Below are positions 1,530 through 29,833 of a stretch of 64,000 bases of DNA, piece by piece. Source of the stretch: Ignavibacteria bacterium (GTDB lineage: Bacteria > Elusimicrobiota > Endomicrobiia > PHAN01). Where the stretch lies: positions 52,266 to 116,265 of the forward strand of contig JBGFRZ010000082.1 of assembly GCA_041694835.1 (NCBI GenBank), written 5' to 3'. Numbering within the stretch: the stretch's first letter is position 1; each line of letters starts with the position of its first letter. The notes beneath the pieces are model-generated. The model had not been told where the DNA came from. It saw nothing but the letters and a program-made list of their open reading frames with translations, and made no database searches. The position numbers and the translations under genes were made by a program.

Positions 1530-4500
1530 TTATCTCGCCACCACGACTGTGCCGTTTTTTATTTTATCTCCGACTTTCAACTGATAGATGTAAACTCCCG
1601 TCGGAAGCGCTCCGCCCGATTGTTCTTTGCCATTCCAAACCACCCATAAATCGCTCTTTTTCTCCATCTCTGCCACTTTATAGCCGCTCAAATCAAAAAT
1701 CTCACCCGTGACACTTTCGGAGAAAGGATTTTCGAAAGTTACATTAAACTCATCGTTTATCCCATCGCCGTTGGGTGTGAAAACTTTCGGCCATGCGTTT
1801 AAAATTTTAAACTCCACCGCTCTTTGAAGAGAGCGAACCCTGAACTCCCCCGAGTATCTCGCATCTGCAATTAAATATGCCCCCAAATATCTCCCGCCAA
1901 GATTGACCCACTCCACTCCGTTAAACCAGAAGACAGCATAACTGGCGACTTCTGAAGGTGTCTTTGAAACTGCGGGCGACGAAGCAGTGAGGTTTTCAAG
2001 TTGAAATTTAAGAGTCAGAGGTTTTTTGAATCCAGTTTTTATCAATGCCCCTTCCCTATCCATTATTTCAACCATATACGAGAGTTTCGTCTTCTGGTCG
2101 TCGGGTGGGTTTTCTTTCTTTGTAATTTTAACGGAATAATCCGGTCTTAAAATTTCGGGTTCAGCAACAATTTGGAATTTGCCGTTTTCCGAATGATGAA
2201 TGTTTTGATTTGGTTCGCCTGCCACCAATACTGCCGATGGCTCGCCAAGGACTCCAAGTGTATTTATTGCTCTAACCATATAATAGATATTAACGTCAGA
2301 GACCAAAGCGAGTGTCAATGTGCTAGAAGATGCGGGGACAAATGCCACATGGTTAGAAGTAAACAAGTCGTCAAATCTATGGGCCACGTAAACCCTGAAG
2401 CCTGCGAGGTTTCCTGGAGAGGAACCATCTGTATTTTTAATGGGCGCAGTCCACGAAAGGACTATATCTTTTGTATTTGGGATATCAAACTTAAAGTTCG
2501 TTGGAGGCAGGGGTCTTGCTGAAGGGTTTGTATAAAAACTCCAGTCAGTTGTTGGCGTAGAGCGACTCGTTTTATCTACTGCATAAACCCGCCAGTAATA
2601 GGTGCTGTCGACCAAGAGGGTCTTATCGAGGGGGACTTGATACGACAAAGAAGCAATATTTGAAACAACTTTTCTTGAAGAAAAATCGGGCGATGTCGAA
2701 TGCCATAACTCATAAACCACAAAGTCTTCAGGGTCTGGGTCAAAAGAAGATGACCACGAGAAATTAGGCATAAGCGTTTCTATAATGGCCCCGTTGGCTG
2801 GGGAAAGCAGAGAAAACGCCGAAGGATTTTCTTCAATTGAATTTACCTTGAAACTTAAAACACTTGACCATCTCTGATTGCCCCATATATCGCAAGCAAC
2901 TGCCCTCCACCAATAAGTTCCGTTCTCTTTAAGTTCCAGGGTTATATATGAAGTGGTTGTAATTCCGACTGAAGACACAAAGACATTGAAATTTTCATAA
3001 GACGAATAATGGACATCATACCAGAATGTATCCGATTCGGGGTCTGAACTTGGTGACCATATTAAAGTTGGCGTTCTAGTCGAAATTATCCCTGATGGAC
3101 TAACAGGAACAAAAGGGTTTGGTGGCAGATTGACTGCAATAAAACTTCGCGATAGTGTATCTGTTGAACCCGTAAGTGTTGAATGCGCCGTAACATACCA
3201 GTAATATGTCGTGTTGTTGGACAGGTCACTTTGAAATGTATATGAGGTAATATATATCGGAGAAATCTGAGTTTTAATGGCAAAAAGCGAATTCGTGGAA
3301 TAAGTCAGAGTGTAATAATACACATAATCATAAGGGTCAGGGTCTGTTGTTTCCTGCCACAAAAGAGTGGGCTTGAGATAACTATAAAAAGAGCCATCCA
3401 GTGGCGAAAGCAGAGAAAAAGCTTTTGGATTTTCTGAAGTTGCATCAACTATAAAAAACCAGGTTGAGGAATGCGTCATGGCATTAAAGGAATCAATAGC
3501 AATAACATACCACCAATATGTAGTGTTTTCATTTAGCGATGTAGTGACCGAAAAAGGTGGGGAACTAATTCCGACTGAAGAGACAAAAATAGAGAAATTT
3601 GAGACGGAAGAATAAAAGATGGAGTAGGTGACGGTGTCCCCATCCGGATCGATTGCACTTTGCCAACTTAAAGACAGCGTCTGGGTTCTAATTATTCCCG
3701 AAGATGCGAGCAAATTGAAACTGCCCGGCGGAAAATTTACCGCTTTTACCGTAAAACTTGAAATTTCCGATTGCGTCGTCAGGTTATCCGGAGACGACCT
3801 TGCGACAACTCTCCACCAATACACCGCATCTTCCTGTAAATCTATCAATTGATAGTAGGTGGTGAGTATATCGAAAATGACTGGCGGGGCTGGAGTGGCT
3901 GTGGTTGAAGAGTAAGAAATTCCGTAATATACAGTATTGCCGGGGTCTAAATCAATAGCGATGCTCCATCGAAGTGTCGGTGATGATGTAAAAATCATTG
4001 TGCCGCCCGTGGGCCAGAGAAGTGAAAATGGCTGAGGCGGTTCATTCACAGTATTTAATCTAAAACTGCCGGTTGACGACGAAACGGTTTCGCGGCCCGT
4101 CGTGTCTCTTGCATGAACCTTCCAGAAATACCTGGCGTTTTCAGTTAAATTCCACCACGGCGACCAGGATAACTGATTAATGCCCGACACTCTGGTAGAA
4201 ACATTTGATTCAAAACTGATAGATGTAGAAATATAAACATTATAAACAACAAAATCTGCAGGGTCAGGGTCGGAAGAAGCGTTCCACCAAAGCGTCGGCT
4301 GAAGGGTACCGGTTTCTATGGTGTCATTTATCGGCTGAATAAGCGAAAAAGCCGTCGGCGATTCGCTCGTCGCATTTACAACAAACTGAGGGGTGCCGGT
4401 TACTCCCAATGAAAGTAGTCCTTCTGAATCCCTCGCATAGACACGCCAGTAGTATGTCGTGTTTTCGTTTAGCGCGGGGGTTGTCCAATTTGTCTGGGTT

Positions 4501-5168
4501 ATATTCTCCACAACGCTTTTTGGCGAAAAATTGCTTGCGGTTGAATACCAAAGGATGTAACTCGTTATACTGTCGCCGTAGATATTGTCTGTGCCGACAG
4601 GAAATCCACCGGCATTTGTCACATCGCCCCATGCCAGAAAGACCAATGAAGAAAAAACAACTGTTGTCGGGGTTCCTGTGTAGTTGTAGCCACTTACATT
4701 CCCAGGTGAGTTGTTCTGAGTCGCCGACTGGGGCTCAGGACTTGAAGTGTCAAGCAGCGACCAGTTGATGTTGTCCGTCGAAGATTTTATCGCAAAAAAA
4801 TATGTTATATTATTTACAAGAGATGAAACGACTCTCATCTCCGAGTTGCTGGAAGAAGTTGAAGTCGAAAATTTTATCCTGTAGGGGTAAGAAATCGATG
4901 TGGAGTTGTTTGTCCAGTCGGCTTCTGCGACTATTACCCGGTAACTCGAAACTCTTACCTCGTACCATTGAGGCGCTCCTTCCGGCCCACCTGGAGCTGT
5001 CCATTGAAGGGTTATGTGTCTGAAGCCGCTTGATCTTATTGAGAGATCGGTGACCTGATTTGGAACAGCGTTCAGGGTCGTTAATCCAAATAAAAAAAGT
5101 ATCGTCGGCCAAAAAAAACGAACGGGGCGAAACTTATCGATATCCGACAGTTTTGTCCGATGTTTCAT
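1530..5168 (-). CDS. large secreted surface protein (1212 aa): signal peptide, >=8 Fn3/Ig-like ~100-aa repeats, C-terminal T9SS type-B sorting domain (gliding-motility-associated CTD)
   Basis: Recurring repeat motifs PTLxWxxxxDPDxDxxxYxxxxSTxxxF appear throughout. The last ~85 aa, FTPNGDGINDEFNVTF...WNGK...GVYIYQLKVGDKIKNGTVVVAR, match the TIGR04131-type FxPNGDGxND CTD. The N-terminus has a hydrophobic signal-like segment. Confidence 0.6.
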   Translation of the reverse strand: MKHRTKLSDIDKFRPVRFFWPTILFLFGLTTLNAVPNQVTDLSIRSSGFRHITLQWTAPGGPEGAPQWYEVRVSSYRVIVAEADWTNNSTSISYPYRIKFSTSTSSSNSEMRVVSSLVNNITYFFAIKSSTDNINWSLLDTSSPEPQSATQNNSPGNVSGYNYTGTPTTVVFSSLVFLAWGDVTNAGGFPVGTDNIYGDSITSYILWYSTASNFSPKSVVENITQTNWTTPALNENTTYYWRVYARDSEGLLSLGVTGTPQFVVNATSESPTAFSLIQPINDTIETGTLQPTLWWNASSDPDPADFVVYNVYISTSISFESNVSTRVSGINQLSWSPWWNLTENARYFWKVHARDTTGRETVSSSTGSFRLNTVNEPPQPFSLLWPTGGTMIFTSSPTLRWSIAIDLDPGNTVYYGISYSSTTATPAPPVIFDILTTYYQLIDLQEDAVYWWRVVARSSPDNLTTQSEISSFTVKAVNFPPGSFNLLASSGIIRTQTLSLSWQSAIDPDGDTVTYSIFYSSVSNFSIFVSSVGISSPPFSVTTSLNENTTYWWYVIAIDSFNAMTHSSTWFFIVDATSENPKAFSLLSPLDGSFYSYLKPTLLWQETTDPDPYDYVYYYTLTYSTNSLFAIKTQISPIYITSYTFQSDLSNNTTYYWYVTAHSTLTGSTDTLSRSFIAVNLPPNPFVPVSPSGIISTRTPTLIWSPSSDPESDTFWYDVHYSSYENFNVFVSSVGITTTSYITLELKENGTYWWRAVACDIWGNQRWSSVLSFKVNSIEENPSAFSLLSPANGAIIETLMPNFSWSSSFDPDPEDFVVYELWHSTSPDFSSRKVVSNIASLSYQVPLDKTLLVDSTYYWRVYAVDKTSRSTPTTDWSFYTNPSARPLPPTNFKFDIPNTKDIVLSWTAPIKNTDGSSPGNLAGFRVYVAHRFDDLFTSNHVAFVPASSSTLTLALVSDVNIYYMVRAINTLGVLGEPSAVLVAGEPNQNIHHSENGKFQIVAEPEILRPDYSVKITKKENPPDDQKTKLSYMVEIMDREGALIKTGFKKPLTLKFQLENLTASSPAVSKTPSEVASYAVFWFNGVEWVNLGGRYLGAYLIADARYSGEFRVRSLQRAVEFKILNAWPKVFTPNGDGINDEFNVTFENPFSESVTGEIFDLSGYKVAEMEKKSDLWVVWNGKEQSGGALPTGVYIYQLKVGDKIKNGTVVVAR

Positions 5169-5716
5169 ATCTTTATATGTGTGTAATTAAGCCATCTTAT
5201 GATTTTTGAGAATACGCTCTTTTTCTCATTCCTCACAATCTTGAGTGATGTGAGTTTAAGGTTTAATCTTCTTATCTCGTCCTCATACTGCTTGAGAGTA
5301 TTTTTATGGCCGCTTATTGCGACCGATTGAGTATCGATAATATCTTCTTTTTTGTGCAGCACAAGCAAGAAATCTTTTCGCCAGTTTGCGAATTCTTTCG
5401 CCTGAACGGAAATCTTCGCCAACTCGTTTTTCAGAGTTTCTATCTCGTCGCGAAGTTTTTCGTTTTCTTCCCTTATGCTGTTTTTCTCATCCTCAAGAAG
5501 TTGCATTTTTTGATTGCCATCCTCCGCCATCCGAGATAAAATCTCATTCTTTTTGTTTAAATCAGATCTCAGTCTTGTGATTTCGCTCATATACAGATTG
5601 TTTTTCTCTCTGAACAAAGATGATTCTGGCATTTCACCACGACAACCGAATTCATCCTCGAGGCGCTCTATCTTTTTAAGAAGCTCTGAAACTTTAGTTG
5701 CTCTTTGGCTTGCCAT
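5165..5716 (-). CDS. coiled-coil protein (183 aa), E/K/L-rich heptads
   Basis: Track ORF. It overlaps the downstream gene by 4 bp (ATGA) and the upstream gene by ~23 bp, suggesting translational coupling within the operon. Confidence 0.4.
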   Translation of the reverse strand: MASQRATKVSELLKKIERLEDEFGCRGEMPESSLFREKNNLYMSEITRLRSDLNKKNEILSRMAEDGNQKMQLLEDEKNSIREENEKLRDEIETLKNELAKISVQAKEFANWRKDFLLVLHKKEDIIDTQSVAISGHKNTLKQYEDEIRRLNLKLTSLKIVRNEKKSVFSKIIRWLNYTHIKI

Positions 5717-8700
5717 CGTTTCTCCTTATCTTGATTATGGGTTCGTTCAGGTTTTCCCAGAACTTCTTAAACGACGATGCCTTCTTTCCTTCTGAAAACT
5801 CTCCCTCGCCCTCTTTATCGACAAATTTCCTAATCGCCTTCTTGAGTTCATTTATTTCCTCGTCCTTAATTGAGATTTCAATCTCACGGGCTTTGTATTT
5901 TTTTGTTATTTCATCTATAATTTCTTTCAGCTCAAATACATCCGAGGTTGCGATTTTGGTCGCTGAATTTTTCAGATTTTCATAAGCGTCCGATATCTCT
6001 CTCTTCTGAGATTCCATCTCCTCAATTTTTCCGCGATACTCGCTATTTAAAAGCGATATATTTTTCTCGAGGTTCTCCGCTCTCGCTTTTAGTACCGCTC
6101 TTTCCTCTTCTTTCGCCTTTAACTCGGAATCTTTCAAAGACAGTTCTTCCTGTGCGGTCTTTATTGAGTGCTCCATTTCGGCTCTTATTTCACTTAACTC
6201 TGAATTCAGGGCGGATTTCATCTGCGATTTTTCTTTTAAAAGGGTTTCAATCTGATTTCTGTATTTCTCCTCCATCTCCCTTTGAATTTCCAATTCCTTC
6301 CGCCTGTAGTCGAGATGAAGCCTCTCGATTTCTCCCTCTTTCGAAATGATATCGGCTTTAAGTCTGTCTTTTTCATCGTACCACTTTGTGAGCATCTGCT
6401 CATAATTTTTTTTAGACTCTTCGACCTCTTTCCTAAGACGTTCGAACTCAAAGGCATTTTCCATCTCCACTTCCCTTCTCACTTCAAGCTCCATCTGCTT
6501 CCATTCGGCATTCATATTTCTTATCTGGTTTTCTTTTAGAACAATATCCTGTTTGATGTTGTTTGCTTCTTTTTGAGCCGATGAAATCTCCTCTCTGAGT
6601 TTAACGGTTTCTATCTGATAGTTCTTCTTCTCTAATTCAAGAGAAGTGATTTTTCTTTCAATCTCGCCTTTCTCAATCCTAGAATTATTCAGAATCTCCT
6701 GCTCTTTCATCAACTGCTCGGCGAGCTTTCTGTTTAACTCTTCCTTCTGTCTGGCGAATTCATTTTGGACTTCCCTGATTCTTGCGTCGGCATCTTTTTC
6801 TCTGAGTAAAATCGCGTGATTCAGATCGGACACCGCTTTTCTTGCATGTTCAAGCTCAAAACGAATGTGCTCCGCCTCTTTTGAGAGCGCATTACAGCGC
6901 GACTCTTCCTTTGAAAAACTCTCTATCAGACGATGAATTTCCCCGTTAAGCTCCGATATTTTGCTTTCATATCCGCCGATAGTTTTTGATTTTTCCCTCT
7001 CAAATTCTTTTGCAAGGTTTGCGACTTCTCTTTCCGCATCTCGCTGAATATTTACAACATCATTCCTGAGCGACGTGATTTTGGCCTCACTTTCGCTCGT
7101 CAACCTTGATATAGTCTCCTGATAATTCTTTTCAATTTCCTTTATCCTGACTTCGGCCTCCCTCTCTTTTAGCTCGATAGCGTGATTGCTCTCCGCTATC
7201 TTATGACTTGCGTTATCGAGCTCAAAAGTTATCGATGCGATTTTCTGCGAGTATGAATCGTTTTTAGATGATAACTCGACTATATGACTTCTAGAGTCGG
7301 TCAGATCTTTCTCCATGATTTTTTTGTCCTGTTCCAACCGCAAACTCCTCATTTCAAACTCTTTCATTCGCGCCGCGTACTGTTGCATCTGATTTTCATA
7401 TAAAGAGTCACTTCTCTGTGCGTCCTGTCTCAGGATAGAAATTTTCTGCTCATACTCCGCTTCTTTCTGTTCAAGCCTCTGCAACCATTGGGCTTCGGCG
7501 ATTCCGAGTTGAGCTTCCTTTGAGCTAAGTTTTGAGTCGTATTCGGCCGAAAGGGTTCTCAATTTTTCTTCGTAATGCCTTTTAATGTTTTCGAGTTCGG
7601 TTTCCTTCAAACGGACGGCGCTATTAAAATCTCTTTCGTGATCGGCGAAATATACCTTCAGAGATTTTATCTCCTCTTCCTTCTTTTGTATCTCAAAACC
7701 AGATTCCTGGATTTTTTTGTTAAGCTGTTCCTTGTAAAATAATATCTCCCTGAGAAGTTTGTCCTGTTCTGTTTTAGTCTTCCCCTGGAAAAGCGCAAAC
7801 TGCGTCTTCAGGAGAAAATACTCCTTCTCTTTCGCTTCGGCACATTTGACGAGTTCGTTTTTCTCGGTTCTCATCTTTTCAATAAGATGGACGAGCTTCT
7901 CGCCCTTTTCTTTCTGCTCCCTTAATTGAACCGAAGACATTGCAATCTGCGCCTTTATCGCAAGAAACTCTCTATCTCTTTCTTCAAGTTGTTTCAGGAG
8001 AATATTTTTTTCTTCCTGATTTTTTGCGACAGATTCCTTCAAGTCCCTCAAAGCGGCGTCTCTGTCGGATTCCATCCTTGAAATCCTGTTTTCAAAGTCG
8101 TCTTTTTGTTCAAGCAGATTTTTCTCGAATGCAAGCTTCAGTTTCGAGAGCTCTTCTTCTTTATTTCTCAGAGATGTGGACCATCCAAGTTTTTCTTCGT
8201 GCCATTTTCTCTCGAGATCTTTTATCTTCAGGGAAAACTGTTCTTCAATCTCTGTCTCCTGGAAGTCCCTCTGCTGCATCTGTGTCTTTAACGTCTGAAC
8301 CCATGTTTCTCTCTCTTGAGAGAGTCTTTCCTCAAGTTCTTTTATCTTCGATTCGGCTTTCGCTTTCGCTTCCTCTATTTCCTGCTCTCTTTTTTCCCGC
8401 CTGAGGCGTTCTTGAATGTCTTTTATAGATTCCTCGACTTTGGAGGCCATCGCTTCTTCTTCCTTAGACTTCATCATCTGTAAGAGAAGTTTTTCCCTTT
8501 CCTGCTGAAGTTGATTCTGAAGTTCTATTATCTGCTGTTGAAGTTTGGTGGCGGACGCGTCGGAGGCGGGGGTGTCCAAGATGGGCAGATGCTGTGCGGG
8601 CGGCTTCAGAGGCAGCCCGGTCCTTTTGGGGAGTACGGGCGAGCCCGAAGATGGTTTCGGGGGCAGCGGTAGATTTGGTTTTCCTCCTGCGTGTTGACCT

Positions 8701-8741
8701 TTCGATGGCAAAGGCGGAAGTTTGGGTTTTTTATCTTCCAT
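5694..8741 (-). CDS. giant coiled-coil protein (1015 aa) with proline-rich N-terminus (PKLPPLPSKG...PLPPKPSSG)
   Basis: Track ORF. The protein is an almost continuous E/K/L/Q heptad coiled coil. It overlaps the upstream 1616-aa gene by 11 bp. Confidence 0.5.
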   Translation of the reverse strand: MEDKKPKLPPLPSKGQHAGGKPNLPLPPKPSSGSPVLPKRTGLPLKPPAQHLPILDTPASDASATKLQQQIIELQNQLQQEREKLLLQMMKSKEEEAMASKVEESIKDIQERLRREKREQEIEEAKAKAESKIKELEERLSQERETWVQTLKTQMQQRDFQETEIEEQFSLKIKDLERKWHEEKLGWSTSLRNKEEELSKLKLAFEKNLLEQKDDFENRISRMESDRDAALRDLKESVAKNQEEKNILLKQLEERDREFLAIKAQIAMSSVQLREQKEKGEKLVHLIEKMRTEKNELVKCAEAKEKEYFLLKTQFALFQGKTKTEQDKLLREILFYKEQLNKKIQESGFEIQKKEEEIKSLKVYFADHERDFNSAVRLKETELENIKRHYEEKLRTLSAEYDSKLSSKEAQLGIAEAQWLQRLEQKEAEYEQKISILRQDAQRSDSLYENQMQQYAARMKEFEMRSLRLEQDKKIMEKDLTDSRSHIVELSSKNDSYSQKIASITFELDNASHKIAESNHAIELKEREAEVRIKEIEKNYQETISRLTSESEAKITSLRNDVVNIQRDAEREVANLAKEFEREKSKTIGGYESKISELNGEIHRLIESFSKEESRCNALSKEAEHIRFELEHARKAVSDLNHAILLREKDADARIREVQNEFARQKEELNRKLAEQLMKEQEILNNSRIEKGEIERKITSLELEKKNYQIETVKLREEISSAQKEANNIKQDIVLKENQIRNMNAEWKQMELEVRREVEMENAFEFERLRKEVEESKKNYEQMLTKWYDEKDRLKADIISKEGEIERLHLDYRRKELEIQREMEEKYRNQIETLLKEKSQMKSALNSELSEIRAEMEHSIKTAQEELSLKDSELKAKEEERAVLKARAENLEKNISLLNSEYRGKIEEMESQKREISDAYENLKNSATKIATSDVFELKEIIDEITKKYKAREIEISIKDEEINELKKAIRKFVDKEGEGEFSEGKKASSFKKFWENLNEPIIKIRRNDGKPKSN

Positions 8742-11700
8742 TTTTCCCTCCTGATTTGTTATTTATCTTGTTTGTTAATTCCTTCTCAAAGCTAATCAGA
8801 TTCTCGTTTTTAGGTTCTATGGATATCGCCTTTTTTATCGCCATAAGAGCGTCATCCAGTTTGTCTGTGTTATAAAAGCATAAGGACATATACTGCTGTG
8901 CTTCCGCGCTGGATGGATTATTCCGAGTGAACTCCCTCAGTATTTCCAAAGACTCGGAGTAACTGCCTTGTTCGCAAAGTTCTACGGCTCTTTTCAAAAG
9001 CATCGGTCTGACTTCTTTTGGTGTCTGTCCATAAGAAACCATCTTTCCCATAAAGTCGTCGGCGAATTTCTTAAGATTTTCCCTCATCTCCCGTCGACGA
9101 ATGCTTTCTGCCATTATTTCTTTTGTAGTCATTTGCATACCGGCCTCGAGCACATCGAGTTGATTCATCTTAAGTTCAAGCAGTTTTGTGAATCTATCTT
9201 TTTCCGACATTATAGAGTTTTCAAGTTCTGATATTTCCCGAACCATAGAGATAAGTTCGGTGTTTTTATCCTCATAAAGCTTTAACTGAGCGGATATCTC
9301 CGGAGAATCCTTCATATAAGAGGCTCCCGCATCCGCAAGCTCTTTTCTTAAATTCTCTATGGCTTGAGATGAGAGTTTATGCTGCGACTTATTCTTATCG
9401 ATTGTCTCTTCCAGAACTCCTTTTAGTTCATCAATATATTTTTGGAGCTCTTCTCCGCGCTTTTTTGTTTCATTTTGCAGACGCTCATTTCTCAACTCAA
9501 GTCGTTTTGAGAGGGTGGTTATCTTTTCTTCTTCCATATAGATTTTGTTTTTAGACTCTGACAAATAATCGTTGTATTTCCTGAGAAGTTCCGTCAAATC
9601 TTTTTCGAGCTTTTTCAAGAGGTTCTTGCTTTTTTTCTCATGCCTCAATCGCGCAGTCTCGAACTCGGACTTCGAAAGTGCCACTTTGAGTTTTCTGGAT
9701 TCTATTTCCTTTTCAATCTCTCCGATTATCTTTGCCGAAGAGTTCTCGCTTTCTTTCAACTTACTTTCCCAAAGATTCACTTCGGCGAGGAGCGTTTCTC
9801 TCTCTTTAAGAAGCTTCGCTTCCTGAAGGACCCATTCGGATTCGAGGCGATTTTTTTCATCGTCATATTTTGCCTCTAGTTCTCTTTGCGTTTTTATTTT
9901 CCCGGAAATCGTTTCCCCGGTTTCCTTCTTTAACTTTTCCATTTCAGACGACAACTTTTCCATCTCTCGCTCGATCTTTTCTTTCTCGGCGAGGTGTTCT
10001 TTCGTTATTCGTTGCTCTTCGTCGGTCACATAGGATTCCCATGTTGTTATTTTGTTTCCGAGCTCTTTCATCTCTTCTTCTTTTTGCGATTTTAAATTGC
10101 TCCAGTAATCGCCTTGCTCTCTGATAGTCTTTTGAAGAGTTGATATCTGCTCTTCAAGTCTTTTATTCGTATCAGTCCAGGTTGTCTCTTTATTCTTTAG
10201 TTCATTTTTTGTCTGTTCAAGAGATGCCTGTGATTTATTGATGAACGCATTCAGCTCGCTCGTCTTGGAGCAAAGCGCGGTTTTGCCCGCATTCTGAACT
10301 TCCAAAAAGTTGTTTTGGAGCATCGTCAGTTCTTCGGCCAGAACTTTTCTCTCGTTTTCATAATTTTCGTTTTGCTTTTTTTCCTCCTCGTGCCATGATT
10401 TTTCTCTTAAAGCCATCTGCGTCTTCAGGACATAAAGTTGCCTGTCCAGAATCCTTACTTCATCGCGATTCGTTCCGACTAGAGCTTTTAGCTTATGTTC
10501 TAACTCATCCCTCTTCCTATCAAGCGAATGTTTCTCGGCGGCATAATTCTGTGATGAGTTTTCAAACTTTGTTTTCATTTCATCTTCCAATACTTTTAGA
10601 TTCTGCTGTCCAACTTTCAGTTTTTCTTCAACTTCGGATAACTCTTGCTCCTGCTTGATTTTTATGGCTTTCATCTGGTTTTCAAGATTTTCTTTCCTTT
10701 TTTCAATTCTTTTGACGAACTGCTCATGCGATTGAAAATATGAATCTCTATTTTTTGTGTAATTATCCTCCTGTTCCTTCAATTTCGCATTTAGTTCCTG
10801 AATCTGCTGCTGCCTTGTGGCAACCATCCCCGGATGTTTTTCTTCCAACTGCGCAAGTTCCATTTCATTCGATGTAATTTTGGAAATCAGCAGTTCTTTG
10901 ACTTTATTAAACTCGCTTTCCATATGATTCAACCTGGCTTTATACTCCTGTTCAAACCTCAAGTGGTCCGACTTAAGCTTTTCAATTTCACGCTTTTTCT
11001 CCGCCAGCAACTCCGCATGGCGGGATTTCATCTCTTCCGATTCATTTTCAATCTTTTCTATTTCCTCATTTATGAGCTTTTTTTCATTTTCATTTTCTAA
11101 CTCAAGAATTTTTATTTCTTTTTCATATTTGTGAATGTTGGTTTCACGAGATGCGTTTAAAAAAGTTATCTTGTTATCGAACTCTATTAAGATATCAGCA
11201 TGTTTTTTTCTTGTTTCATCAAGTTTTTTTGAAGATTCTTCGAGTTTTTTTCTGACCAACTCAAGCTCCGCGCTTATTATGCTCTCCTTTTCTTCTATCT
11301 CATATTTATTTGCCGAAATTAAATCATTCACTTTTTTACTTATCGCTTGTATATGTCTTTCGGACTCCGAAATTTCACTTTCGCATTTTTCTTTAAAAAA
11401 ATTAAACCCGACTTTCGTCCTTTCAAGCGACTCTATCGCTATCTTCTTCTTGCCTTCAAGTTCAAAGCGGGTGGCGTCCAAATTTTTTTGTAACACCGCT
11501 GTCTTTTCCAAAAGAACTTTTTCTAACTGATTGTTCTCATCGTTTTTCGCGCTTACGGTCTCATCAAATCTCTTTTGTTCTGAAATCACCACACTATTCA
11601 ATTCCTCTATTTTAGCCTCAATACTTCCTTTTTCTTCTTTTAGTTTTACATTAAAACTTTCAAGCGCAAGAGAATGATTTTTCTTTTCATCTTCCATCTT

Positions 11701-13581
11701 TTGCATCAAAGACTGATGGACATTTTCAAGTTCCTTCATGTTTTTTGAATGTTCTTTTTCAAGCGATATTTTTTGAGAGTCAATCTCGTCTATGTCGGCC
11801 TTTATTGAATCGATTTCGGCCGAGAGTTTATCGACTGACTGATGGTATCTACTTTCAAGCATATTTTCCTGATGGGCAAAACGTTGCTTCAAACTTAAAT
11901 AATCTCTTTCCTTTTCTGCCATCTTCTGCTTAAAATCCATCTCAAGACGCGCTTTTTTACTTTCAGCGACCTTCAGCTTTTCTTTATAAGGTTCAACTTC
12001 CACAAAAAGTTTCTTTTTAGCGTTCTCAAAAGACCTGGTGCTTTCCAAAAGTTCCGCTTCCACTGAATTTTTTGCGGCTTCAACCTGGGATTTCTTTTGA
12101 GAAAGAAGTGAAGAGTACTCCGTCTTTATTTTCGAAAAATCTTCCTGGAACTTTTGATATTTATCCTCGATGAGTTTTTTCTCCTCGGAAAGAATTTCAA
12201 TTTGATGTTTATGTTGAAGATTCTTCTGTTCCTGGTTCGATTGCCAATCGTTTTTGAACTTTTCCATCTCTTCGTACTTTCCGGAGAGTTCACTTTGATA
12301 TTCTATTTTCTGGTTCAAAACTTCTTTTTCAAGATCAGTACATCTCAAAGAGATTCTCTTTTTTTCATTTTCAATATTTGTTTTGTATTTTTCTATTTCT
12401 GCGTTTTTCTCCCTTATCTTTATTTGAGCCTGGATTTTAATGTCTTCTATATCCTGATCCGCGACTCTTATCATATTCTCCCATTCGGATTTTTCCTGCT
12501 CATATTTCTGATGAAGCTCCTTGAGCTGTTTTTCAGCCAGAGATTTTGCCTCTTTGAACTCGTTGAAACGTTTTTCGCGAGCGGAACTTTCCTGCGTTTC
12601 CTGAAGCATCATGTCAATTTTTAGTTTATTGAAAGCATCTTCCCTCTCTTTCAATAGTTTCTCGTATTTCTCCTTTTCGGAAAGCGACTCCCTTTCCATC
12701 TCACTCATCTGAGCCACTAACTTTTCTTTTAAATCCTTAAGCAATATCTTTTTCGCATTCAGTTCCTGCTCATATATTATCTGACGCTGTTTCAAAGCCG
12801 AGCTGAATGCAAGCAATCCCTCTTTTTTATCGTTATAAATTTTCTGGAAGTTTGCTCTCATTTCGGAAAGATTTTTTTCAACACCATTCAACTGATTATT
12901 GTAATTGCCTTCTAATTCTTTTTTCTCCCGATGAAATTTTTCCTCTTCCTGCCGGGACTGGTTGACTCTGAGGGATATCTGTGCTTTTAATGCCACGATT
13001 TCCTCTTCCCTGCCTTTCAGTCTTGTTACAAATTCCCCTATTTCCTGCTGTGCTTTTTTCTCGAAGGCAAGAAGCTGACTTTCTATCTCTCTTAATTCCT
13101 GAGTGGATGAAATTATCTCTTTTTCATCTTCGGCTTTTTTTTCGTTTTCCCTGGTTTGCAAATTTACTTTTGTTTCGTCTATCTCGGTTATGATAGCTCT
13201 GATTTTTTGACCCCACTCTTTATCCTCTTCTTCTATCTTGCGCTCAACCCTTTGCAGTTCGTCATTCCATTTTTTTCTAAGCGAATTTATCGAGTCCTGA
13301 TGAAGTTGCATGTTGTTTGAAAGTTCGAGTTCAACAAGTTCAAGATGGATGGAAAGTTTTATTTTTTCATCTTCTTTCTCTTTTTCTTTCTTCCTGTAAT
13401 TTTCCCGCTCAACTTCGAGCATCTTTTCTATGTTTTCAAGTTGCTCACGCGCCGTTTTTTTTATGCTTTGTAAATCATGGCTGGCGGTAAGCTCTATCTT
13501 TTTCTCGTCGCACTCAATATCCGATGTCGCTTTTTTTTCGGCGACTGGTTCCTCTTTGTGTTTGATTAGCCACTTCCACAT
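8731..13581 (-). CDS. giant coiled-coil protein (1616 aa) with C-terminal TPR-like repeats
   Basis: Track ORF. It reads as ~1500 aa of SMC/myosin-tail-like coiled coil followed by LEILREFTRNNPSSAEAQQYMSLCFYNTDKLDDALMAIKKAISIEPKN (TPR). Confidence 0.5.
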   Translation of the reverse strand: MWKWLIKHKEEPVAEKKATSDIECDEKKIELTASHDLQSIKKTAREQLENIEKMLEVERENYRKKEKEKEDEKIKLSIHLELVELELSNNMQLHQDSINSLRKKWNDELQRVERKIEEEDKEWGQKIRAIITEIDETKVNLQTRENEKKAEDEKEIISSTQELREIESQLLAFEKKAQQEIGEFVTRLKGREEEIVALKAQISLRVNQSRQEEEKFHREKKELEGNYNNQLNGVEKNLSEMRANFQKIYNDKKEGLLAFSSALKQRQIIYEQELNAKKILLKDLKEKLVAQMSEMERESLSEKEKYEKLLKEREDAFNKLKIDMMLQETQESSAREKRFNEFKEAKSLAEKQLKELHQKYEQEKSEWENMIRVADQDIEDIKIQAQIKIREKNAEIEKYKTNIENEKKRISLRCTDLEKEVLNQKIEYQSELSGKYEEMEKFKNDWQSNQEQKNLQHKHQIEILSEEKKLIEDKYQKFQEDFSKIKTEYSSLLSQKKSQVEAAKNSVEAELLESTRSFENAKKKLFVEVEPYKEKLKVAESKKARLEMDFKQKMAEKERDYLSLKQRFAHQENMLESRYHQSVDKLSAEIDSIKADIDEIDSQKISLEKEHSKNMKELENVHQSLMQKMEDEKKNHSLALESFNVKLKEEKGSIEAKIEELNSVVISEQKRFDETVSAKNDENNQLEKVLLEKTAVLQKNLDATRFELEGKKKIAIESLERTKVGFNFFKEKCESEISESERHIQAISKKVNDLISANKYEIEEKESIISAELELVRKKLEESSKKLDETRKKHADILIEFDNKITFLNASRETNIHKYEKEIKILELENENEKKLINEEIEKIENESEEMKSRHAELLAEKKREIEKLKSDHLRFEQEYKARLNHMESEFNKVKELLISKITSNEMELAQLEEKHPGMVATRQQQIQELNAKLKEQEDNYTKNRDSYFQSHEQFVKRIEKRKENLENQMKAIKIKQEQELSEVEEKLKVGQQNLKVLEDEMKTKFENSSQNYAAEKHSLDRKRDELEHKLKALVGTNRDEVRILDRQLYVLKTQMALREKSWHEEEKKQNENYENERKVLAEELTMLQNNFLEVQNAGKTALCSKTSELNAFINKSQASLEQTKNELKNKETTWTDTNKRLEEQISTLQKTIREQGDYWSNLKSQKEEEMKELGNKITTWESYVTDEEQRITKEHLAEKEKIEREMEKLSSEMEKLKKETGETISGKIKTQRELEAKYDDEKNRLESEWVLQEAKLLKERETLLAEVNLWESKLKESENSSAKIIGEIEKEIESRKLKVALSKSEFETARLRHEKKSKNLLKKLEKDLTELLRKYNDYLSESKNKIYMEEEKITTLSKRLELRNERLQNETKKRGEELQKYIDELKGVLEETIDKNKSQHKLSSQAIENLRKELADAGASYMKDSPEISAQLKLYEDKNTELISMVREISELENSIMSEKDRFTKLLELKMNQLDVLEAGMQMTTKEIMAESIRRREMRENLKKFADDFMGKMVSYGQTPKEVRPMLLKRAVELCEQGSYSESLEILREFTRNNPSSAEAQQYMSLCFYNTDKLDDALMAIKKAISIEPKNENLISFEKELTNKINNKSGGKNGR

Positions 13582-13596: not shown

Positions 13597-15411
13597 TTAT
13601 TTTCTTGATGCCTCGAGTTTTATCTGTTCAATAAAGTTTGACAGCTCCGTGTCATTTGGGTTTATGTTTAACACCGCTTCATAATTTGCAATCGCTTCGT
13701 CATATCTTCCGAGAGCATAATATGAAGCGGCAATATAACTGTAGGCGTCGGTCAAAGTGTTGTCGATTGAAAGGACGTACTCAAGATAGCTTATGGCATC
13801 CTCATAGTTTCCCGCTTCATAACTGGAGAGTCCTGCCTGATAGTAATCCGCAGCGTCACCTTCCGAAGGAGCGGCTTCTTCGTCAACAACCTCTTCACCC
13901 TCAAGAGCGCTGCTTTTCGGCTTTTCTCTTATAAAGATTTTACCGTCATCTTCAAGTTTTCTTATGACATCCATTATTTTCTTTCTTCCTTCTTCTGTCT
14001 GTAACGGCGTTACGGATTGGGTGTACTGCATTTCTTCTTGAATAAGTTGGACCGCGTTAGACGACATGTTGGCAAAAAACTTATTTACCACATCCTGAGG
14101 CACTCCTTTGAGTGAGCGGGCAAGAAGTTCCGAATTTTTCAAATCTGGAAAGTTAAGTATTGTCTGCATCGTCTGATCCGTGAAGTTCTTAATGTCATCA
14201 AACTTCAATATAAACTTTCTGACCCTGTCGTAGAGTTCCGGTTTTTCGTTCTGTAGATAATCCAGTATGTTGTCCCTTGTTACGTTGTCAACCTGATCAA
14301 GCACTTTCAAAAGATGCTCTATGCCGCCTATTAGGAAGTCTATCTTTTCTTTTATGTCGTCGTCTATCTTCATTACCTTATCCCTCGTCATCTGTCTTAT
14401 GGTCGCCATCTCTATGGCCACCTGCGACTGAACCTGCGCCGAAAGGCTGAGAAGTATCTCTTTGACATGCTCGGGTTTAAGATAACTTATTACGAGAGCT
14501 ATTATTCTTGCGCTTTCTTTCCTTATTAAATATATAAGTCTTTTAAGATTTTCGTCATCTACATAGTGAAACGGTTTGTACTTTTTTTTCTCCTCTTCCA
14601 GCGCTTCAAGCTCAGCCGCAGAAAGAGCGCCGCCTCCGCCTCCTCCTTCACCGCCTTCTGGCTCCCCCTCGGGGTTTTCGAATTTTGAATCCACGGTAAC
14701 TTCTGTTCCGCCCTTTTCCCTCATCGTTTTTACATATGCACGGAAAAAGCCAGCAAGAGGACCGAAAAGAAAAAATAAAAGAAGAAATGCTATAACAAGA
14801 GGTATCAAAACAAGCGGCTTCAGCAGCTCTTCAAAAAATCCCGTCGTGAATTTTGTTTTCTTAAAATCTATCCGGTCACCGCGCTTTTGATCTATTCTGA
14901 GAGCGGAAGTAATAGCATCTTTTACGGCTTCAAGTTTCGACTCGGGAACTTTTTCATCGTGCAAAACAGTCACTATCTGTTTTTTCAGAGCAATTTTGAC
15001 CTCGACAGTTATTTTTTCCTGCTGGCCGGCCTCTTCTTTCGATTCGCCGACTTGATCCGCTTGAGAAACCGCTCTGGGCGCCGGAACACCCGGCAGCAGA
15101 TACTCCACCTCGCCTATCGGCTTCTTTTTTTCGGCCTTTCTTTCCCTGACGAAGGTTTTTCTGGTTATCGTATCAAGACCGAATTCGACATCGACTATGG
15201 CTATCGCTTTATCCGGTCCAAGTATCCTGTCAAGGATGTCTTTCTGAACGTACTCCGTCTTTTCTTTTTCGTACTTGAGTTCATGTTCTATCAGTGAGAT
15301 TTCCGCAGACTGCGGGGTCATCTGTCCATAAAGATAAACAAAAGAAGAAAGAGCCAGTAAAAGTGCCACCGCGCTTTGTTTCAAATTTTTAAGCTGTTTT
15401 AATTTTTTCAT
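13597..15411 (-). CDS. membrane protein fusing FliF/YscJ-like periplasmic ring-building motif, TM helix, FliG-like middle+C-terminal domains and C-terminal TPR repeats (604 aa)
   Basis: N-terminal signal/TM anchor MKKLKQLKNLKQSAVALLLALSSF. The periplasmic segments AIAIVDVEFGLDTITRKTFVRERK and ITVEVKIALKKQIVTVLHDEKVPESKLEAVKDAITSALRIDQKRGDRIDF resemble FliF ring-building regions (compare SARVHLAMPKPSLFVREQK and VTVTLEPG...VVHLVSSAVAGL). A second TM helix is PLVLIPLVIAFLLLFFLFGPLAGFF, followed by a Gly-rich linker. Then ESARIIALVISYLKPEHVKEILLSLSAQVQSQVAIEMATI ... DIKNFTDQTMQTILNFPDLKNSELLARSLKGVPQDVVNKFFANMSSNAVQLIQEEMQY..EEGRKKIMDVIRKLEDDGKIFI follows the FliG/MgtE-N fold pattern. TPR repeats lie at the C-terminus. 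Confidence 0.5.
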   Translation of the reverse strand: MKKLKQLKNLKQSAVALLLALSSFVYLYGQMTPQSAEISLIEHELKYEKEKTEYVQKDILDRILGPDKAIAIVDVEFGLDTITRKTFVRERKAEKKKPIGEVEYLLPGVPAPRAVSQADQVGESKEEAGQQEKITVEVKIALKKQIVTVLHDEKVPESKLEAVKDAITSALRIDQKRGDRIDFKKTKFTTGFFEELLKPLVLIPLVIAFLLLFFLFGPLAGFFRAYVKTMREKGGTEVTVDSKFENPEGEPEGGEGGGGGGALSAAELEALEEEKKKYKPFHYVDDENLKRLIYLIRKESARIIALVISYLKPEHVKEILLSLSAQVQSQVAIEMATIRQMTRDKVMKIDDDIKEKIDFLIGGIEHLLKVLDQVDNVTRDNILDYLQNEKPELYDRVRKFILKFDDIKNFTDQTMQTILNFPDLKNSELLARSLKGVPQDVVNKFFANMSSNAVQLIQEEMQYTQSVTPLQTEEGRKKIMDVIRKLEDDGKIFIREKPKSSALEGEEVVDEEAAPSEGDAADYYQAGLSSYEAGNYEDAISYLEYVLSIDNTLTDAYSYIAASYYALGRYDEAIANYEAVLNINPNDTELSNFIEQIKLEASRK

Positions 15412-17093: not shown

Positions 17094-17462
17094 TTAATGT
17101 ATGACTCCAATTTTTCTTAAAGCCACTATCTTCCCGCCATCGACGGAAACCACACAGATATATCCGCCCTTGGCGACGTAATGACCGTTTTCGTCGCGAC
17201 CGTCCCACAGGATTGTATCTCCAAAAAATTCGAGATGCTTGACGGGGCGGCCAAAAAGATCGAAAATTTTTACCGCAATTCCAACGTCGGTCTGATTTGA
17301 TTTTTTTACAAGGATGCTTGTGGAAGTTTTTCTCGAATCGAACGGATTGGGATAGTTTGAAAGAAATATGTCAGAAGATGATGCGACGGATGCCGTCAAC
17401 AAAAGAATTGATGAGGCGAAAGGGATAAGTAAAAGATAATTTAAAAAGTTGATGTGCTTCAT
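17094..17462 (-). CDS. small secreted protein consisting of a signal peptide plus T9SS type-A C-terminal sorting domain (FlgD-Ig-like CTD) only (122 aa)
   Basis: LSNYPNPFDS...VKIFDLFGRPV..L....ILWDGRDENGHYVAKGGYICVV...KIVALRKIGVIH matches the TIGR04183/PF13860 CTD pattern. It is the first gene of the operon. Confidence 0.5.
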   Translation of the reverse strand: MKHINFLNYLLLIPFASSILLLTASVASSSDIFLSNYPNPFDSRKTSTSILVKKSNQTDVGIAVKIFDLFGRPVKHLEFFGDTILWDGRDENGHYVAKGGYICVVSVDGGKIVALRKIGVIH

Positions 17463-23474: not shown

Positions 23475-23477
23475 ACT

Positions 23478-23972
23478 CTATTTTATTTCGGAAGGTTTTT
23501 TACCGTCAAACTTATCATATAGAATTTTGTAAATTTTTATTTTTATCTCTCTATCGCAAGTTCTTACCACATTTGAATCGGCAACTTTTATTACTCTGCC
23601 TTTTTCGTCATAAACCCATCTATTCCTATCTCCACGATTACACTTTTGACATTGAGGAATAATATTATCCGCAACTAATGGTTTACGAGGATTCATATGA
23701 GCTTTTTGTAATTTTGTTTTTGTGGCAGGCCAATGCAAATGAGGCAGTCCTTCTTCGGAACCACATGTGGCGCATCTAAAATGATATTTTTCTTTCATCT
23801 TACTCCAATCGTCCGTATCACTAATTCTATGTCCTTTTTTAAAAGATGGGTAGGGCTTTTCTAATGTGTATAATTGATACTCCCCCCTTTTAAGATTCAA
23901 GACGATATTATCTCTGCCCCCTGCCACAATCCACCAACCTTTTTGTGCTCCTAAATGCCTGGCCTGTTGCAC
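23478..23972 (-). CDS. HNH endonuclease (probable restriction-endonuclease partner; 5' part appears frameshifted, with a protein-like reading continuing to ~24190 in two frames)
   Basis: FRCATCGSEEG...NIIPQCQKCNRGDRNR is an HNH/Zn-finger motif. The track ORF begins at a GTG. Upstream, the same frame continues protein-like (..LVYLAQNYPYTNKVTKEELTRFIREFDPDVND) up to a TAA. A 45-codon ATG ORF (MDKNEIYRIYHTIIKECHAKHLEKYGVGLPRLHDASGNFKRMRLF) sits in another frame. Confidence 0.45.
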   Translation of the reverse strand: MQQARHLGAQKGWWIVAGGRDNIVLNLKRGEYQLYTLEKPYPSFKKGHRISDTDDWSKMKEKYHFRCATCGSEEGLPHLHWPATKTKLQKAHMNPRKPLVADNIIPQCQKCNRGDRNRWVYDEKGRVIKVADSNVVRTCDREIKIKIYKILYDKFDGKKPSEIK

Positions 23973-29816: not shown

Positions 29817-29833
29817 AATAAACCCTCTTTCCT

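Follow-up and report, generated by a model that had tools for sequence, protein, structure and literature searches.

Giant coiled-coil proteins encoded beside a FliF-FliG fusion and T9SS-like genes in Elusimicrobiota: candidate scaffold of an envelope-spanning adhesin machine

The systems closest to the locus described here are the Scy/FilP coiled coils of Streptomyces, the flagellar rotor with its stators, the T9SS/gliding apparatus of Bacteroidota, and the Myxococcus Agl-Glt focal-adhesion gliding complex. Agl-Glt includes the coiled coil AglZ, which has a receiver domain, the TPR-rich GltI, and the MotAB-like AglRQS, whose partner is not FliG; its logic is that of a cytoplasmic coiled-coil/TPR platform, an envelope link to an outer-membrane adhesin, and a MotAB-family motor. 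To our knowledge, no flagellar C-ring includes a giant coiled-coil protein, and Elusimicrobiota lie outside the group in which T9SS is known. Scy and FilP serve as scaffolds on which a multiprotein assembly forms, and the Scy rod has a 51-residue, 14-turn repeat, as given in the part of PMC3718342 that cites Walshaw et al. 2010. In T9SS, type-B sorting-domain proteins pair with PorP-like barrels (PMC9143113). Cultured Elusimicrobiota have been described as non-motile, and the orphan fliG and motAB genes of their non-flagellated members have been noted as lacking an explanation (bioRxiv 10.1101/2022.07.08.499144).

The gene cluster analyzed here lies on one strand of a 64-kb window (the whole stretch of DNA under study), near oriC among chromosomal housekeeping genes, and its genes are tightly spaced or overlapping from end to end (Table 1). 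An earlier note had described three ORFs within it; their lengths and coordinates stand, and all three are on the minus strand. These ORFs, which we call CC1, CC2, and CC3, are real, distinct genes for giant alpha-helical fibrous proteins. Beyond what that note covered, the cluster features a 61/244-residue architecture in CC1, a motif in CC2 and CC3, a FliF-FliG fusion, and T9SS-like outer-membrane parts.

Table 1. Positions of the cluster genes and of features within CC1-CC3, in window coordinates.
Feature	Position	Strand	Description
PorP/SprF- or PorV-like outer-membrane barrel, LysM-like C-terminus	3..1511	-	ORF runs off window start
1212-aa adhesin, fn3/Ig repeats and CHU_C (T9SS type-B) C-terminal sorting domain	1530..5168	-	
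CC3	5165..5716	-	183 aa; short, roughly heptad coil; variable third member of set
CC3 C-terminal motif FSKIIRWLNYTH	5177..5212	-	degenerate copy of CC2 motif
CC2	5694..8741	-	1015 aa; heptad/hendecad coil without 61-residue period
CC2 C-terminal motif FKKFWENLNEPI	5736..5771	-	
CC2 residues 90-420	7482..8474	-	best-conserved block of CC1-CC3
CC2 residues 1-64	8550..8741	-	conserved MEDKKPK-PPLP start, then Pro-rich segment, predicted disordered
CC1	8731..13581	-	1616-aa cytoplasmic rod protein, without signal peptide
CC1 C-terminal module, residues 1527-1605	8767..9003	-	two TPRs and capping helix
CC1 repeat region, residues 52-1270	9772..13428	-	about 20 contiguous indel-free 61-residue units
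FliF(RBM3)-FliG(MC)-TPR fusion	13597..15411	-	upstream partner of CC1
PorV/PorQ-family outer-membrane barrel, C-terminal TPR extension	15423..17057	-	PorV_fam 140.5 bits vs cutoff 90
Small secreted protein	17094..17462	-	signal peptide and T9SS type-A sorting-domain-like (FlgD_ig-like) domain

The three proteins are as rich in E, K, L, and Q as had been claimed (48% of residues in CC1, 46% in CC2, and 40% in CC3), with a P+G content of 2.3-3.7%, and their amphipathic helical periodicity far exceeds that of shuffled controls (z = 27, 21, and 10.5, respectively). The repeats are helical, as proposed, but the term "heptad" holds only approximately for CC3: the hydrophobic period peaks at 3.55-3.6 residues per turn in CC1 (z = 27 vs 11 at 3.5) and in CC2 (z = 21 vs 9 at 3.5), while only CC3 has its maximum close to 3.5 (z about 10 at 3.55 and 3.5). 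Autocorrelation of the coils peaks at lags 7, 11, 18, and 25, pointing to mixed heptads and hendecads. Judged by its periodicity, CC1 is not described by a plain heptad coil.

A single 61-residue register runs through the whole CC1 rod. One unit corresponds to four heptads plus three hendecads, or 17 helical turns. Both the CC1 of the window and every ortholog show similarity-autocorrelation maxima at lags 61, 122, 183, and 244. Over residues 62-916, a run of 15 consecutive units free of indels, 14 units have an aromatic residue or His in one fixed column, and an aromatic column, mostly Trp, recurs every 61 residues in all CC1 orthologs. These orthologs share 22-30% identity, align over ~1,160 rod residues without net indels, fall into length classes separated by exactly 244 (4 x 61) or 488 aa, and have a conserved N-terminus, M-x-(I/F/W)-(F/W)-x-K. 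Assuming 0.1485 nm per residue, the repeat region would be ~180 nm long and the protein ~215 nm overall. Like Scy and FilP, CC1 is a very long coiled coil whose rod follows a regular long-period repeat in which heptads alternate with hendecads instead of standing alone. However, the period is 61 residues/17 turns in CC1 vs 51/14 in the Streptomyces proteins, which have no sequence relationship to those described here and lack the 244-residue super-period, quantized length, aromatic in most units, and terminal TPR of CC1. They also come from a different phylum and a polarisome context, as opposed to a FliG/PorV cluster.

The TPR repeats previously noticed at the end of the largest protein are borne out. 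The single sequence gives a weak match (TPR_16, 16.8 bits), phmmer relates the C-terminus to a consensus TPR at E = 3e-10, and a profile of ortholog C-termini matches consensus TPR structures at E = 2e-75. The terminal two-TPR modules of CC1 and of the upstream FliG-TPR protein are of the same type, with the qualification that profile similarity is expected between any TPRs. CC1 usually, not invariably, ends in such a FliG-TPR-type module.

CC2 does begin with a Pro-rich segment, as had been described, and this start is conserved in orthologs. Its best-conserved block, 330 residues long, is 40-49% identical where the CC1 of the same relatives is 24-27% identical. AlphaFold2 run on CC2 alone gives a low-confidence model (pLDDT 62) in which residues 65-927 form long helices. 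CC2 and CC3 have FWxxLNxP(V/I) in common near the extreme C-terminus; 27 of the 31 matches to the motif regex lie at most 18 residues from the C-terminus of a coil ORF, with ~5 expected by chance anywhere. Many relatives are without CC3.

The partner protein encoded upstream of CC1 consists of a TM helix, a FliF RBM3/beta-collar-like periplasmic domain, a second TM helix, FliG middle and C-terminal domains, and two TPRs. Pfam detects FliG_C at 86 bits and FliG_M at 50, each exceeding its cutoff, and the protein matches 1lkv at E = 2.7e-30; its score with the FliG equivalog TIGR00207, 115.6 bits, is below the cutoff of 226.7. Foldseek relates the AlphaFold2 model (pLDDT 83) to FliG MC (E = 1.6e-10) and to FliF RBM3/S-ring (E about 1e-4, target TM-score about 0.5), and in this model the FliG MC and TPR domains are predicted to lie on the cytoplasmic side of TM2. 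In joining FliF and FliG domains, the partner is like engineered FliF-FliG fusions. Unlike flagellar FliG, it is TPR-extended and has lost two of the four conserved torque-helix charges: relative to E. coli, K264 is kept and D288/D289 are E/E, but R281 is replaced by N and R297 by T. Also unlike a flagellar system, the cluster, the 64-kb window, and the flanks of related loci contain no FliM/FliN, export gate or other export apparatus, rod, hook, or filament genes.

The FliG-like proteins of related loci fall into two kinds, this type-1 FliG and a type-2 paralog. TPR and downstream coil genes accompany nine of ten type-1 proteins tested, the L028 protein having no TPR match, and none of eight type-2 proteins. 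Directly downstream of seven of the eight type-2 genes are MotA and MotB (plug and OmpA type), an arrangement reminiscent of the flagellar rotor with its stators. There are no MotA/MotB genes in the 64-kb window.

The outer-membrane and surface proteins of the cluster resemble the Bacteroidota T9SS and gliding apparatus in two respects: a PorV/PorQ-family barrel occurs together with a type-A sorting-domain-like protein, and, as with SprB-type adhesins, an fn3 adhesin with a CHU_C/type-B domain adjoins a PorP/SprF-like barrel. The CHU_C score of the adhesin is 45.1 (cutoff 27); scores for the type-A sorting domain (21.9 vs 23) and the NCBIfam type-B domain (34.6 vs 35) are borderline. In several relatives, the small secreted protein is replaced by a giant surface protein with a FlgD_ig-like end (695 to >2,800 aa, several of them truncated where the locus ends). 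The differences from Bacteroidota are that the annotated genes of the window and loci include no homologs of the core PorK/L/M/N (GldK/L/M/N) or of the Sov/SprA translocon, that the barrels bear TPR or LysM extensions, and that the inner-membrane partner is FliF/FliG-like instead of GldLM.

Homologs in related genomes, which the earlier note had suggested looking for, were found: the coil genes are kept split in more than 20 Elusimicrobiota genomes, and no relative has a CC1-CC2 fusion. A 61-periodic CC1 is present in 20 loci (1553-2103 aa, z 11-26, one cut by a contig end) and CC2 with its C-terminal motif in about 21. The coil gene(s) come straight after the FliG-TPR gene in 31/31 independent type-1 loci with sequence beyond; as an exception, L028 has one 268-aa gene in between. 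In the loci examined, coil genes occur solely downstream of the type-1 gene and are absent beside the TPR-less paralog, and the closest relatives also have the fn3 adhesin and PorP/SprF-like barrel in the cluster. Because the same gene order recurs in type-1 loci, it is no accident that the coils are linked with the FliG-like and adhesin genes. When 1.84 billion representative proteins were searched exhaustively with HMMER, there were 24 matches, most of them CC1-like and none SMC or myosin. By these searches, the cassette is found almost only in Elusimicrobiota; no cultured member is among the loci recovered with one peptide pattern.

Since the genes encode fibrous proteins in this non-accidental linkage, a scaffold, track, or spacer, as first proposed for them, is the most reasonable class of function. 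The links among the cluster parts are all genomic. We think it reasonably probable that CC1-CC3 make up the cytoplasmic scaffold of a rotor-like adhesin machine that spans the envelope and is so far undescribed. The FliF/FliG fusion would assemble an MS-ring-like ring in the inner membrane, and the coil proteins would dock on its cytoplasmic face, plausibly by TPR-peptide contacts, building a fiber or scaffold of defined length. This scaffold may position, space, or mechanically couple rings that reach, through the periplasm, PorV-like barrels holding sorting-domain adhesins on the surface. The docking scheme appears partly dispensable, because the closest relative (L003) has neither the CC1 TPR nor CC3 and certain lineages have a single, shorter coil gene. 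Further points against this reading are the absence of MotA/MotB from the window, the two lost torque-helix charges, and the described non-motility of cultured Elusimicrobiota. More speculatively, MotAB-type stators, whose genes adjoin that of the FliG-like paralog in other Elusimicrobiota, could turn or load the ring, and the whole assembly could either move surface adhesins, as in gliding, or serve as a force-bearing adhesion apparatus. Such a machine would follow a logic similar to that of Agl-Glt, to which we detect no homology; the coil proteins, unlike AglZ, have no receiver domain.

A bolder version, which we hold only tentatively, is a new kind of machine in which a FliF-RBM3/FliG rotor, driven by MotAB-type stators, would connect outward to T9SS-like adhesin barrels and inward to a ruler-like CC1-CC3 lattice. 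The rotor would be a stripped-down flagellar one, with stators encoded elsewhere or beside the paralog. The lattice, to which CC1 would contribute units of 9 nm and a super-period of 36 nm, would determine how the complexes are spaced or the track they follow. If true, this would be a third, independent route from a MotAB/FliG-type motor to surface gliding or adhesin transport and a previously unrecognized kind of machine in non-flagellated Elusimicrobiota.

The coil proteins might instead constitute an independent cytoskeleton of the intermediate-filament-like kind, comparable to crescentin, FilP, or Scy, governing cell shape or polarity and merely sharing an operon with FliG/PorV. They are long and almost all helical, their long-period non-heptad repeat is reminiscent of the Scy CC51 domain (PMC3718342), and Pfam and NCBIfam scans find no enzymatic or membrane domains in them. 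We nevertheless consider this improbable, given that coil genes follow type-1 FliG only, where all but one of the tested proteins carry TPR, and are missing beside the TPR-less paralog, that the CC1 terminal TPR module is of FliG-TPR type, that spacing is tight across the whole cluster, and that the exhaustive search revealed no family beyond a few dozen proteins.

It is less probable still that the coil proteins are exported as a surface or periplasmic fibril layer, like M proteins or S-layer stalks, that works with the adhesin. Bacterial surfaces commonly bear fibrous coiled coils, and the coil genes do sit between those for envelope proteins and the adhesin. However, signal peptides are present on all true envelope proteins encoded in the cluster, whereas CC1-CC3 have no signal peptide, TM helix, or T9SS-type sorting domain; the cluster lacks type III export gate genes, and the partner domains, TPR and FliG MC, are modeled as cytoplasmic.

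A relationship to SMC, Smc5/6, or JetC chromosome or defense proteins is very hard to sustain. The likeness to SMC and myosin claimed earlier holds for composition only, and weak matches exist (SMC_prok_B, 23.7 bits; JetC, 15.7 bits), but the NCBIfam SMC_prok_B scores (23.7 and 19.1 bits vs a cutoff of 567) cover coil regions only, the proteins lack a Walker A/B head, a signature motif, and a hinge (Pfam gives neither SMC_N nor SMC_hinge, and the CC1 rod stays in one 61-residue register throughout), and no kleisin/KITE partners are among the scanned cluster genes. CC1-CC3 have no relatives in Pfam, PHROGs, PADLOC, or PDB. Two further candidates were rejected: a phage structural protein, including the tail-fiber family raised previously (0 PHROGs families for all three proteins; housekeeping neighbors near oriC), and a known anti-phage defense system (two sub-threshold PADLOC coil matches, both CC3).

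That one giant gene was split into the three ORFs by frameshift errors in sequencing or assembly, as overlapping ends and uniform composition across the junctions might suggest, has a negligible chance of being correct: a strong Shine-Dalgarno site (GGAGG/AGGAG/GGAGGG) lies ~5 nt 5' of each coil ATG, independent assemblies from many samples keep the boundaries and the conserved terminal motifs, the repeat architectures of CC1-CC3 differ, and the coil genes contain no DNA-level tandem repeats able to cause misassembly. The overlaps are where the earlier note placed them, but one was misassigned: CC1 stop and CC2 start share 11 nt, CC2 stop and CC3 start share 23 nt, and the 4-nt ATGA at 5165-5168 joins the CC3 stop to the start of the downstream adhesin gene, not two coil genes. 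The coil genes are probably translationally coupled, as had been proposed; the adhesin gene start has only a weak Shine-Dalgarno sequence.

Translation of the window placed the three coiled-coil ORFs, CC1, CC2, and CC3, on the minus strand, each at exactly the coordinates first proposed from the DNA alone. That proposal had all three ends overlapping: the stop of CC1 overlaps the start of CC2 by 11 nt (8731-8741) and the stop of CC2 overlaps the start of CC3 by 23 nt (5694-5716), but the third overlap (5165-5168, a 4-nt ATGA) joins CC3 to the adhesin gene rather than one coil gene to another. Each coil ORF has GGAGG, GGAGGG, or AGGAG ~5 nt 5' of its ATG, and at the start of the adhesin gene the ribosome-binding site is weak. 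The sequence signs of the translational coupling claimed for CC1, CC2, and CC3 are therefore present, and from the overlapping ends and the ribosome-binding site at each start we infer that the three may be coupled. Glu, Lys, Leu, and Gln make up 48% of residues in CC1, 46% in CC2, and 40% in CC3, with just 2.3-3.7% Pro plus Gly, and none of the three has a signal peptide or transmembrane segment.

Coordinates of the coil genes and their neighbors in the window
Feature	Position	Strand	Length	Remarks
FliG-TPR, natural single-chain FliF-FliG fusion	13597-15411	-		AlphaFold2 + Foldseek
CC1	8731-13581	-	1616 aa	
CC2	5694-8741	-	1015 aa	
CC3	5165-5716	-	183 aa	
Adhesin, fn3/Ig, CHU_C (type-B) sorting domain	1530-5168	-	1212 aa	downstream of CC3
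PorP/SprF- or PorV-like barrel, LysM-like tail	3-1511	-		after adhesin; runs off window

Because composition alone scores high, a crude heptad score hardly separates the coils from their own shuffles, and Fourier and autocorrelation tests were used in its place. Relative to same-sequence shuffles, hydrophobic residues give a helical-amphipathic Fourier signal in CC1 (z = 27), CC2 (z = 21), and CC3 (z = 10.5); the same test gives none in the FliG-like protein or the adhesin. The earlier note had described these proteins as almost uninterrupted heptads. Strong helical periodicity is indeed found in all three, but the spectral peak of CC1 and CC2 lies at 3.55-3.6 residues, not 3.5, and autocorrelation peaks at lags 7, 11, 14, 18, 25, 29, 36, and 54 indicate mixed heptads and hendecads. 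An AlphaFold2 model of CC2 from its single sequence has low confidence (pLDDT 62), so we took only secondary structure from it: residues 1-64 are disordered, helices of 54-192 residues extend to residue 927, and a C-terminal motif lies inside a short helix. No interpretable stagger emerged from the charge periodicity of the rod.

In CC1, similarity autocorrelation peaks at lags of 61, 122, 183, and 244 residues (z = 11-14.5), and when residues 62-916 are written in rows of 61, one column reads Y,W,F,F,Y,W,Y,Y,F,H,F,C,H,H,H with zero indels. Sixty-one residues correspond to four heptads plus three hendecads, or 17 turns at 3.588 residues per turn, which accounts for the CC1 spectral peak. The DNA of the coil genes has a single tandem repeat, a probably insignificant stretch at window 11190-11253 (three copies of a 21-nt unit, 69% matches), and the CC1 gene is otherwise free of them; the 61-residue units are thus old and diverged, and misassembly is unlikely. 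The same lags recur in every CC1 ortholog examined (z = 12-22) at only 22-30% identity to the window CC1, as does an aromatic-enriched column (mostly Trp) at 61-residue spacing, which in one locus (L004) reads KWWWWWWWW.... The rods align without net indel across ~1,160 residues, and the lengths of full-length members cluster at about 1556-1558, 1601-1647, 1851-1861, and 2103 aa. By phmmer offsets, members of the longer classes have exactly 244 or 488 residues more than the 1616-aa form, with the insertion placed between about CC1 residues 635 and 900, so the rod is built, and its length altered, in modules of 4 x 61 = 244 residues. Its periodicity (61 residues, 17 turns) and length (244-residue steps) are far more strictly conserved than its sequence, a pattern that is rare among bacterial fibrous proteins and typical of molecular rulers and of proteins matching a periodic partner. 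Altogether, these comparisons point to a ruler-like architecture for CC1, graduated in 61 and 244 residues. At a helix rise of 0.1485 nm per residue, the predicted lengths are ~9 nm for the unit, ~36 nm for the module, ~181 nm for the 20-unit region, and ~215 nm for the whole helical part. An HMM of the window's own 61-residue units, which is circular for CC1, gave only weak, non-periodic matches in CC2 and CC3, so we do not claim 61-residue units for CC2.

The ends of the coil proteins are also conserved. TPR repeats had been read at the end of the largest ORF, and this was borne out: the CC1 C-terminus consists of two TPRs plus a capping helix, weak from the single sequence, and a 21-ortholog profile matches consensus TPR at E = 2e-75. 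This module aligns with the one at the C-terminus of FliG-like family members over 85 columns (hhalign probability 99.5%), as is partly expected for any TPR pair. The Pro-rich start noted for the middle ORF is likewise kept in CC2 orthologs, which begin M-x-(D/E)-E-KKPK-x-PPPLP followed by 60-100 Pro-rich residues; the CC2 block at ~90-420 is 40-49% identical in genomes where CC1 reaches only 24-27%. The C-terminal motif ~(F/I)x(K/R)(F/I)WxxLNxP(V/I)(I/L)x(I/V) is common to CC2, CC3, and the coil protein of some lineages that have just one coil gene. Among 431 ORFs, 27 of 31 regex matches sit in coil ORFs downstream of a FliG gene, <=18 residues from the C-terminus, against a chance expectation of ~5 matches anywhere; as the regex was derived from these sequences, its positional specificity alone is independent evidence. 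Together, these comparisons show terminal modules and motifs common to the cluster proteins.

Word-indexed homology search returned only four matches for CC1 and two for the conserved block of CC2, because low-complexity words swamp the candidate list, and homologs were found instead by exhaustive HMMER search and by synteny via the FliG-TPR gene. No recorded contig matched the window's own proteins exactly. CC1 residues 1-1200 searched by HMMER against 1.84 billion representative proteins matched 24 at E <= 1e-3, by appearance all CC1 relatives or fragments bar one unrelated repeat protein. Against a frameshift artefact, in which the three ORFs would be one larger gene broken by errors, stand the gene split kept across relatives, a ribosome-binding site per ORF, and the fact that CC1 and CC2 are never fused in the loci compared. 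The suggested likeness to SMC or myosin-tail proteins had to be abandoned, as SMC matches cover the coil only and fall far below cutoff, with no such family above threshold. A defence system fares no better: nothing exceeds the PADLOC threshold, and the JetC match is coil-only and far under cutoff. A phage protein is dismissed by the lack of any PHROGs match above threshold. Across Pfam, NCBIfam, PHROGs, and PADLOC, TPR alone exceeded threshold for CC1-CC3, and a PDB sequence search matched CC1 to TPRs alone and gave no match for CC2. None of the alternatives that the earlier note had raised against itself (frameshift artefact, SMC, phage tail fibre) agrees with these results.

Scanning one genome per species yielded 41 related loci, of which 40 are in MAGs labelled, or by their matches indicated, as Elusimicrobiota (a few named 'bacterium' only) and one is in a Clostridia MAG. 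Homologs in related MAGs, which had been suggested as a check, were found: coil gene(s) come right after FliG-TPR in every one of the 31 independent loci with sequence beyond it, with one small gene between in L028. L001, a JGI metagenome contig with a CC1 identity of only 26%, shares all seven genes in unchanged order, by the gene calls of an independent pipeline. A 61-periodic CC1 of 1553-2103 aa occurs in 20 loci (one truncated by a contig end), and CC2 with the C-terminal motif in about 21. The window, L001, L005, L015, and L025 have a third, motif-bearing coil gene (degenerate in L006 and L021); in L003 and L007, CC2 is directly followed by the adhesin. The closest relative, L003 (Endomicrobiia MAG Yes70-21, 5037-12919), has a 71% identical FliG-TPR, a 1558-aa CC1 without the terminal TPR, and no CC3, so both the CC1 TPR and CC3 are dispensable. 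By these comparisons, CC1-CC3 represent three separate conserved families of predicted cytoplasmic helical proteins, with an obligate genomic association with the FliF/FliG-TPR protein and T9SS-like outer-membrane parts.

FliG is considered a rotor protein specific to the flagellum. The FliG-like protein of the cluster has 111 homologs at E <= 1e-10, the named ones nearly all from Elusimicrobia or Endomicrobiales. In its AlphaFold2 model (pLDDT 83), TM1 is followed by a periplasmic alpha-beta-beta-alpha-beta domain that has a long hairpin; after TM2 come a Gly-rich, disordered linker, the middle and C-terminal domains of FliG, and a two-TPR module. The domain between the two TM helices is FliF RBM3/beta-collar-like: Foldseek matched the model to FliG MC structures (E = 1.6e-10) and to the FliF RBM3/S-ring (8z5v, 6sd1, 8z4g; E ~1e-4). 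Compared with the residue pairs listed in PMC12505986, the torque helix keeps Lys and the acidic pair (E/E for D288/D289), and N and T stand for E. coli R281 and R297.

A paralogous, type-2 cassette is found in other Elusimicrobiota, four times in the same genome as the FliG-TPR cassette. Besides a histidine kinase, these loci (L034-L041; e.g. L040 7723-13564) encode a small sorting-domain-only protein, a PorV-like barrel that carries TPR and LysM, and a FliG-like protein that lacks the TPR; seven of the eight FliG-like proteins close with the conserved tail TETREERLA(K/R)IKE(R/K)LK(K/R)ERGG. MotA, MotB (plug plus OmpA), and a second MotB-like gene directly follow the FliG-like gene in 7/8. 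None of the eight has coil genes; the FliG TPR and the coil genes, both missing here, are thus present or absent together. Judging from these neighborhoods, the FliG-like family is genetically tied to flagellar-type stators, and no flagellar genes were seen in the related loci. A 2022 preprint reported many motAB and fliG homologs in non-flagellated free-living Elusimicrobiota and left their role unexplained (10.1101/2022.07.08.499144). For these orphan genes, the cluster supplies concrete, conserved, testable partners.

Upstream of FliG-TPR lies a gene for a barrel of the PorV/PorQ family (140 bits; cutoff 90) that is extended by a TPR tail, and beyond it one for a 122-aa protein with a signal peptide and a type-A sorting-domain-like domain. 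To our knowledge, Elusimicrobiota is not a phylum known to have a T9SS. The adhesin and its adjacent barrel resemble the SprB/SprF pairing in style and mirror the arrangement in Bacteroidota, where PorP-like barrels anchor type-B sorting-domain proteins (PMC9143113). At the position of the 122-aa protein, six loci (L004, L007, L015, L027, L028, L029) have giant surface proteins of 1,800 to >2,800 aa (most of them truncated where the locus stops) that are low in charged residues and end in the same FlgD_ig/type-A sorting-domain-like domain; the small sorting-domain protein is kept beside the giant in L004, L007, and L015.

The cluster mixes parts of three machines, namely the flagellar rotor, T9SS attachment/gliding modules, and coiled-coil cytoskeletons, and is possibly a new kind of machine. 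The FliF/FliG fusion would form a ring in the inner membrane, and CC1-3 would dock on its cytoplasmic face via TPR-peptide contacts, building a defined-length scaffold that positions or couples rings; the rings may in turn reach through the periplasm to PorV-like barrels holding the adhesins. The dispensability of the CC1 TPR and CC3 in some lineages is a caveat for such docking. It is more speculative, and somewhat doubtful, that MotAB stators drive the ring and that the assembly as a whole is a machine for gliding or adhesin transport: the 64-kb window contains no MotAB gene, the torque-helix charges are retained only in part, and cultured Elusimicrobiota are described as non-motile (10.1101/2022.07.08.499144). 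If true, a motor-adhesin machine would be relevant to how other envelope machines recruited flagellar parts or gave rise to them, and to the movement or attachment of uncultured free-living Elusimicrobiota. In protein architecture, the nearest analogue of CC1 is the CC51 coiled coil of Streptomyces Scy/FilP, with 51 residues in 14 turns (PMC3718342); CC1 differs in its period of 61 residues and 17 turns, is unrelated in sequence, and has in addition a super-period, a quantised length, and a terminal TPR. We found no description of this combination, the cluster, or the coil proteins in the literature on FliG outside flagella, FliG in Endomicrobia, Elusimicrobiota T9SS, and 61-residue repeats.

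Elsewhere in the window, ~16.5 kb from the cassette, a response regulator (33989-35248, minus strand) with a receiver domain, TM segment, and beta-propeller-like domain has full-length homology (26-29% identity) to the regulator that directly precedes the cassette in L001, L005, and L033. A c-di-GMP-related cluster (36061-39893, minus strand) encodes a GAF-HD-GYP-type phosphodiesterase, an MshEN-domain T2SSE/PilB-like ATPase, and a GAF-GGDEF cyclase. The chromosomal origin region (43500-59746) shows a flip in AT skew and in the orientation of genes near 43.5-44.7 kb, and yidC, jag, mnmE, ksgA, dnaA, dnaN, gyrB, and gyrA come after the switch; a DNA methylase (55468-56484) and a 303-aa ORF (56310-57221) lie between gyrB and gyrA. 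Two more restriction-modification-like pairs, an N6/N4 methylase with a 164-aa ORF and a BsaWI-like endonuclease with a methylase, are found among metabolic genes (22470-23972 and 29028-30706, minus strand).
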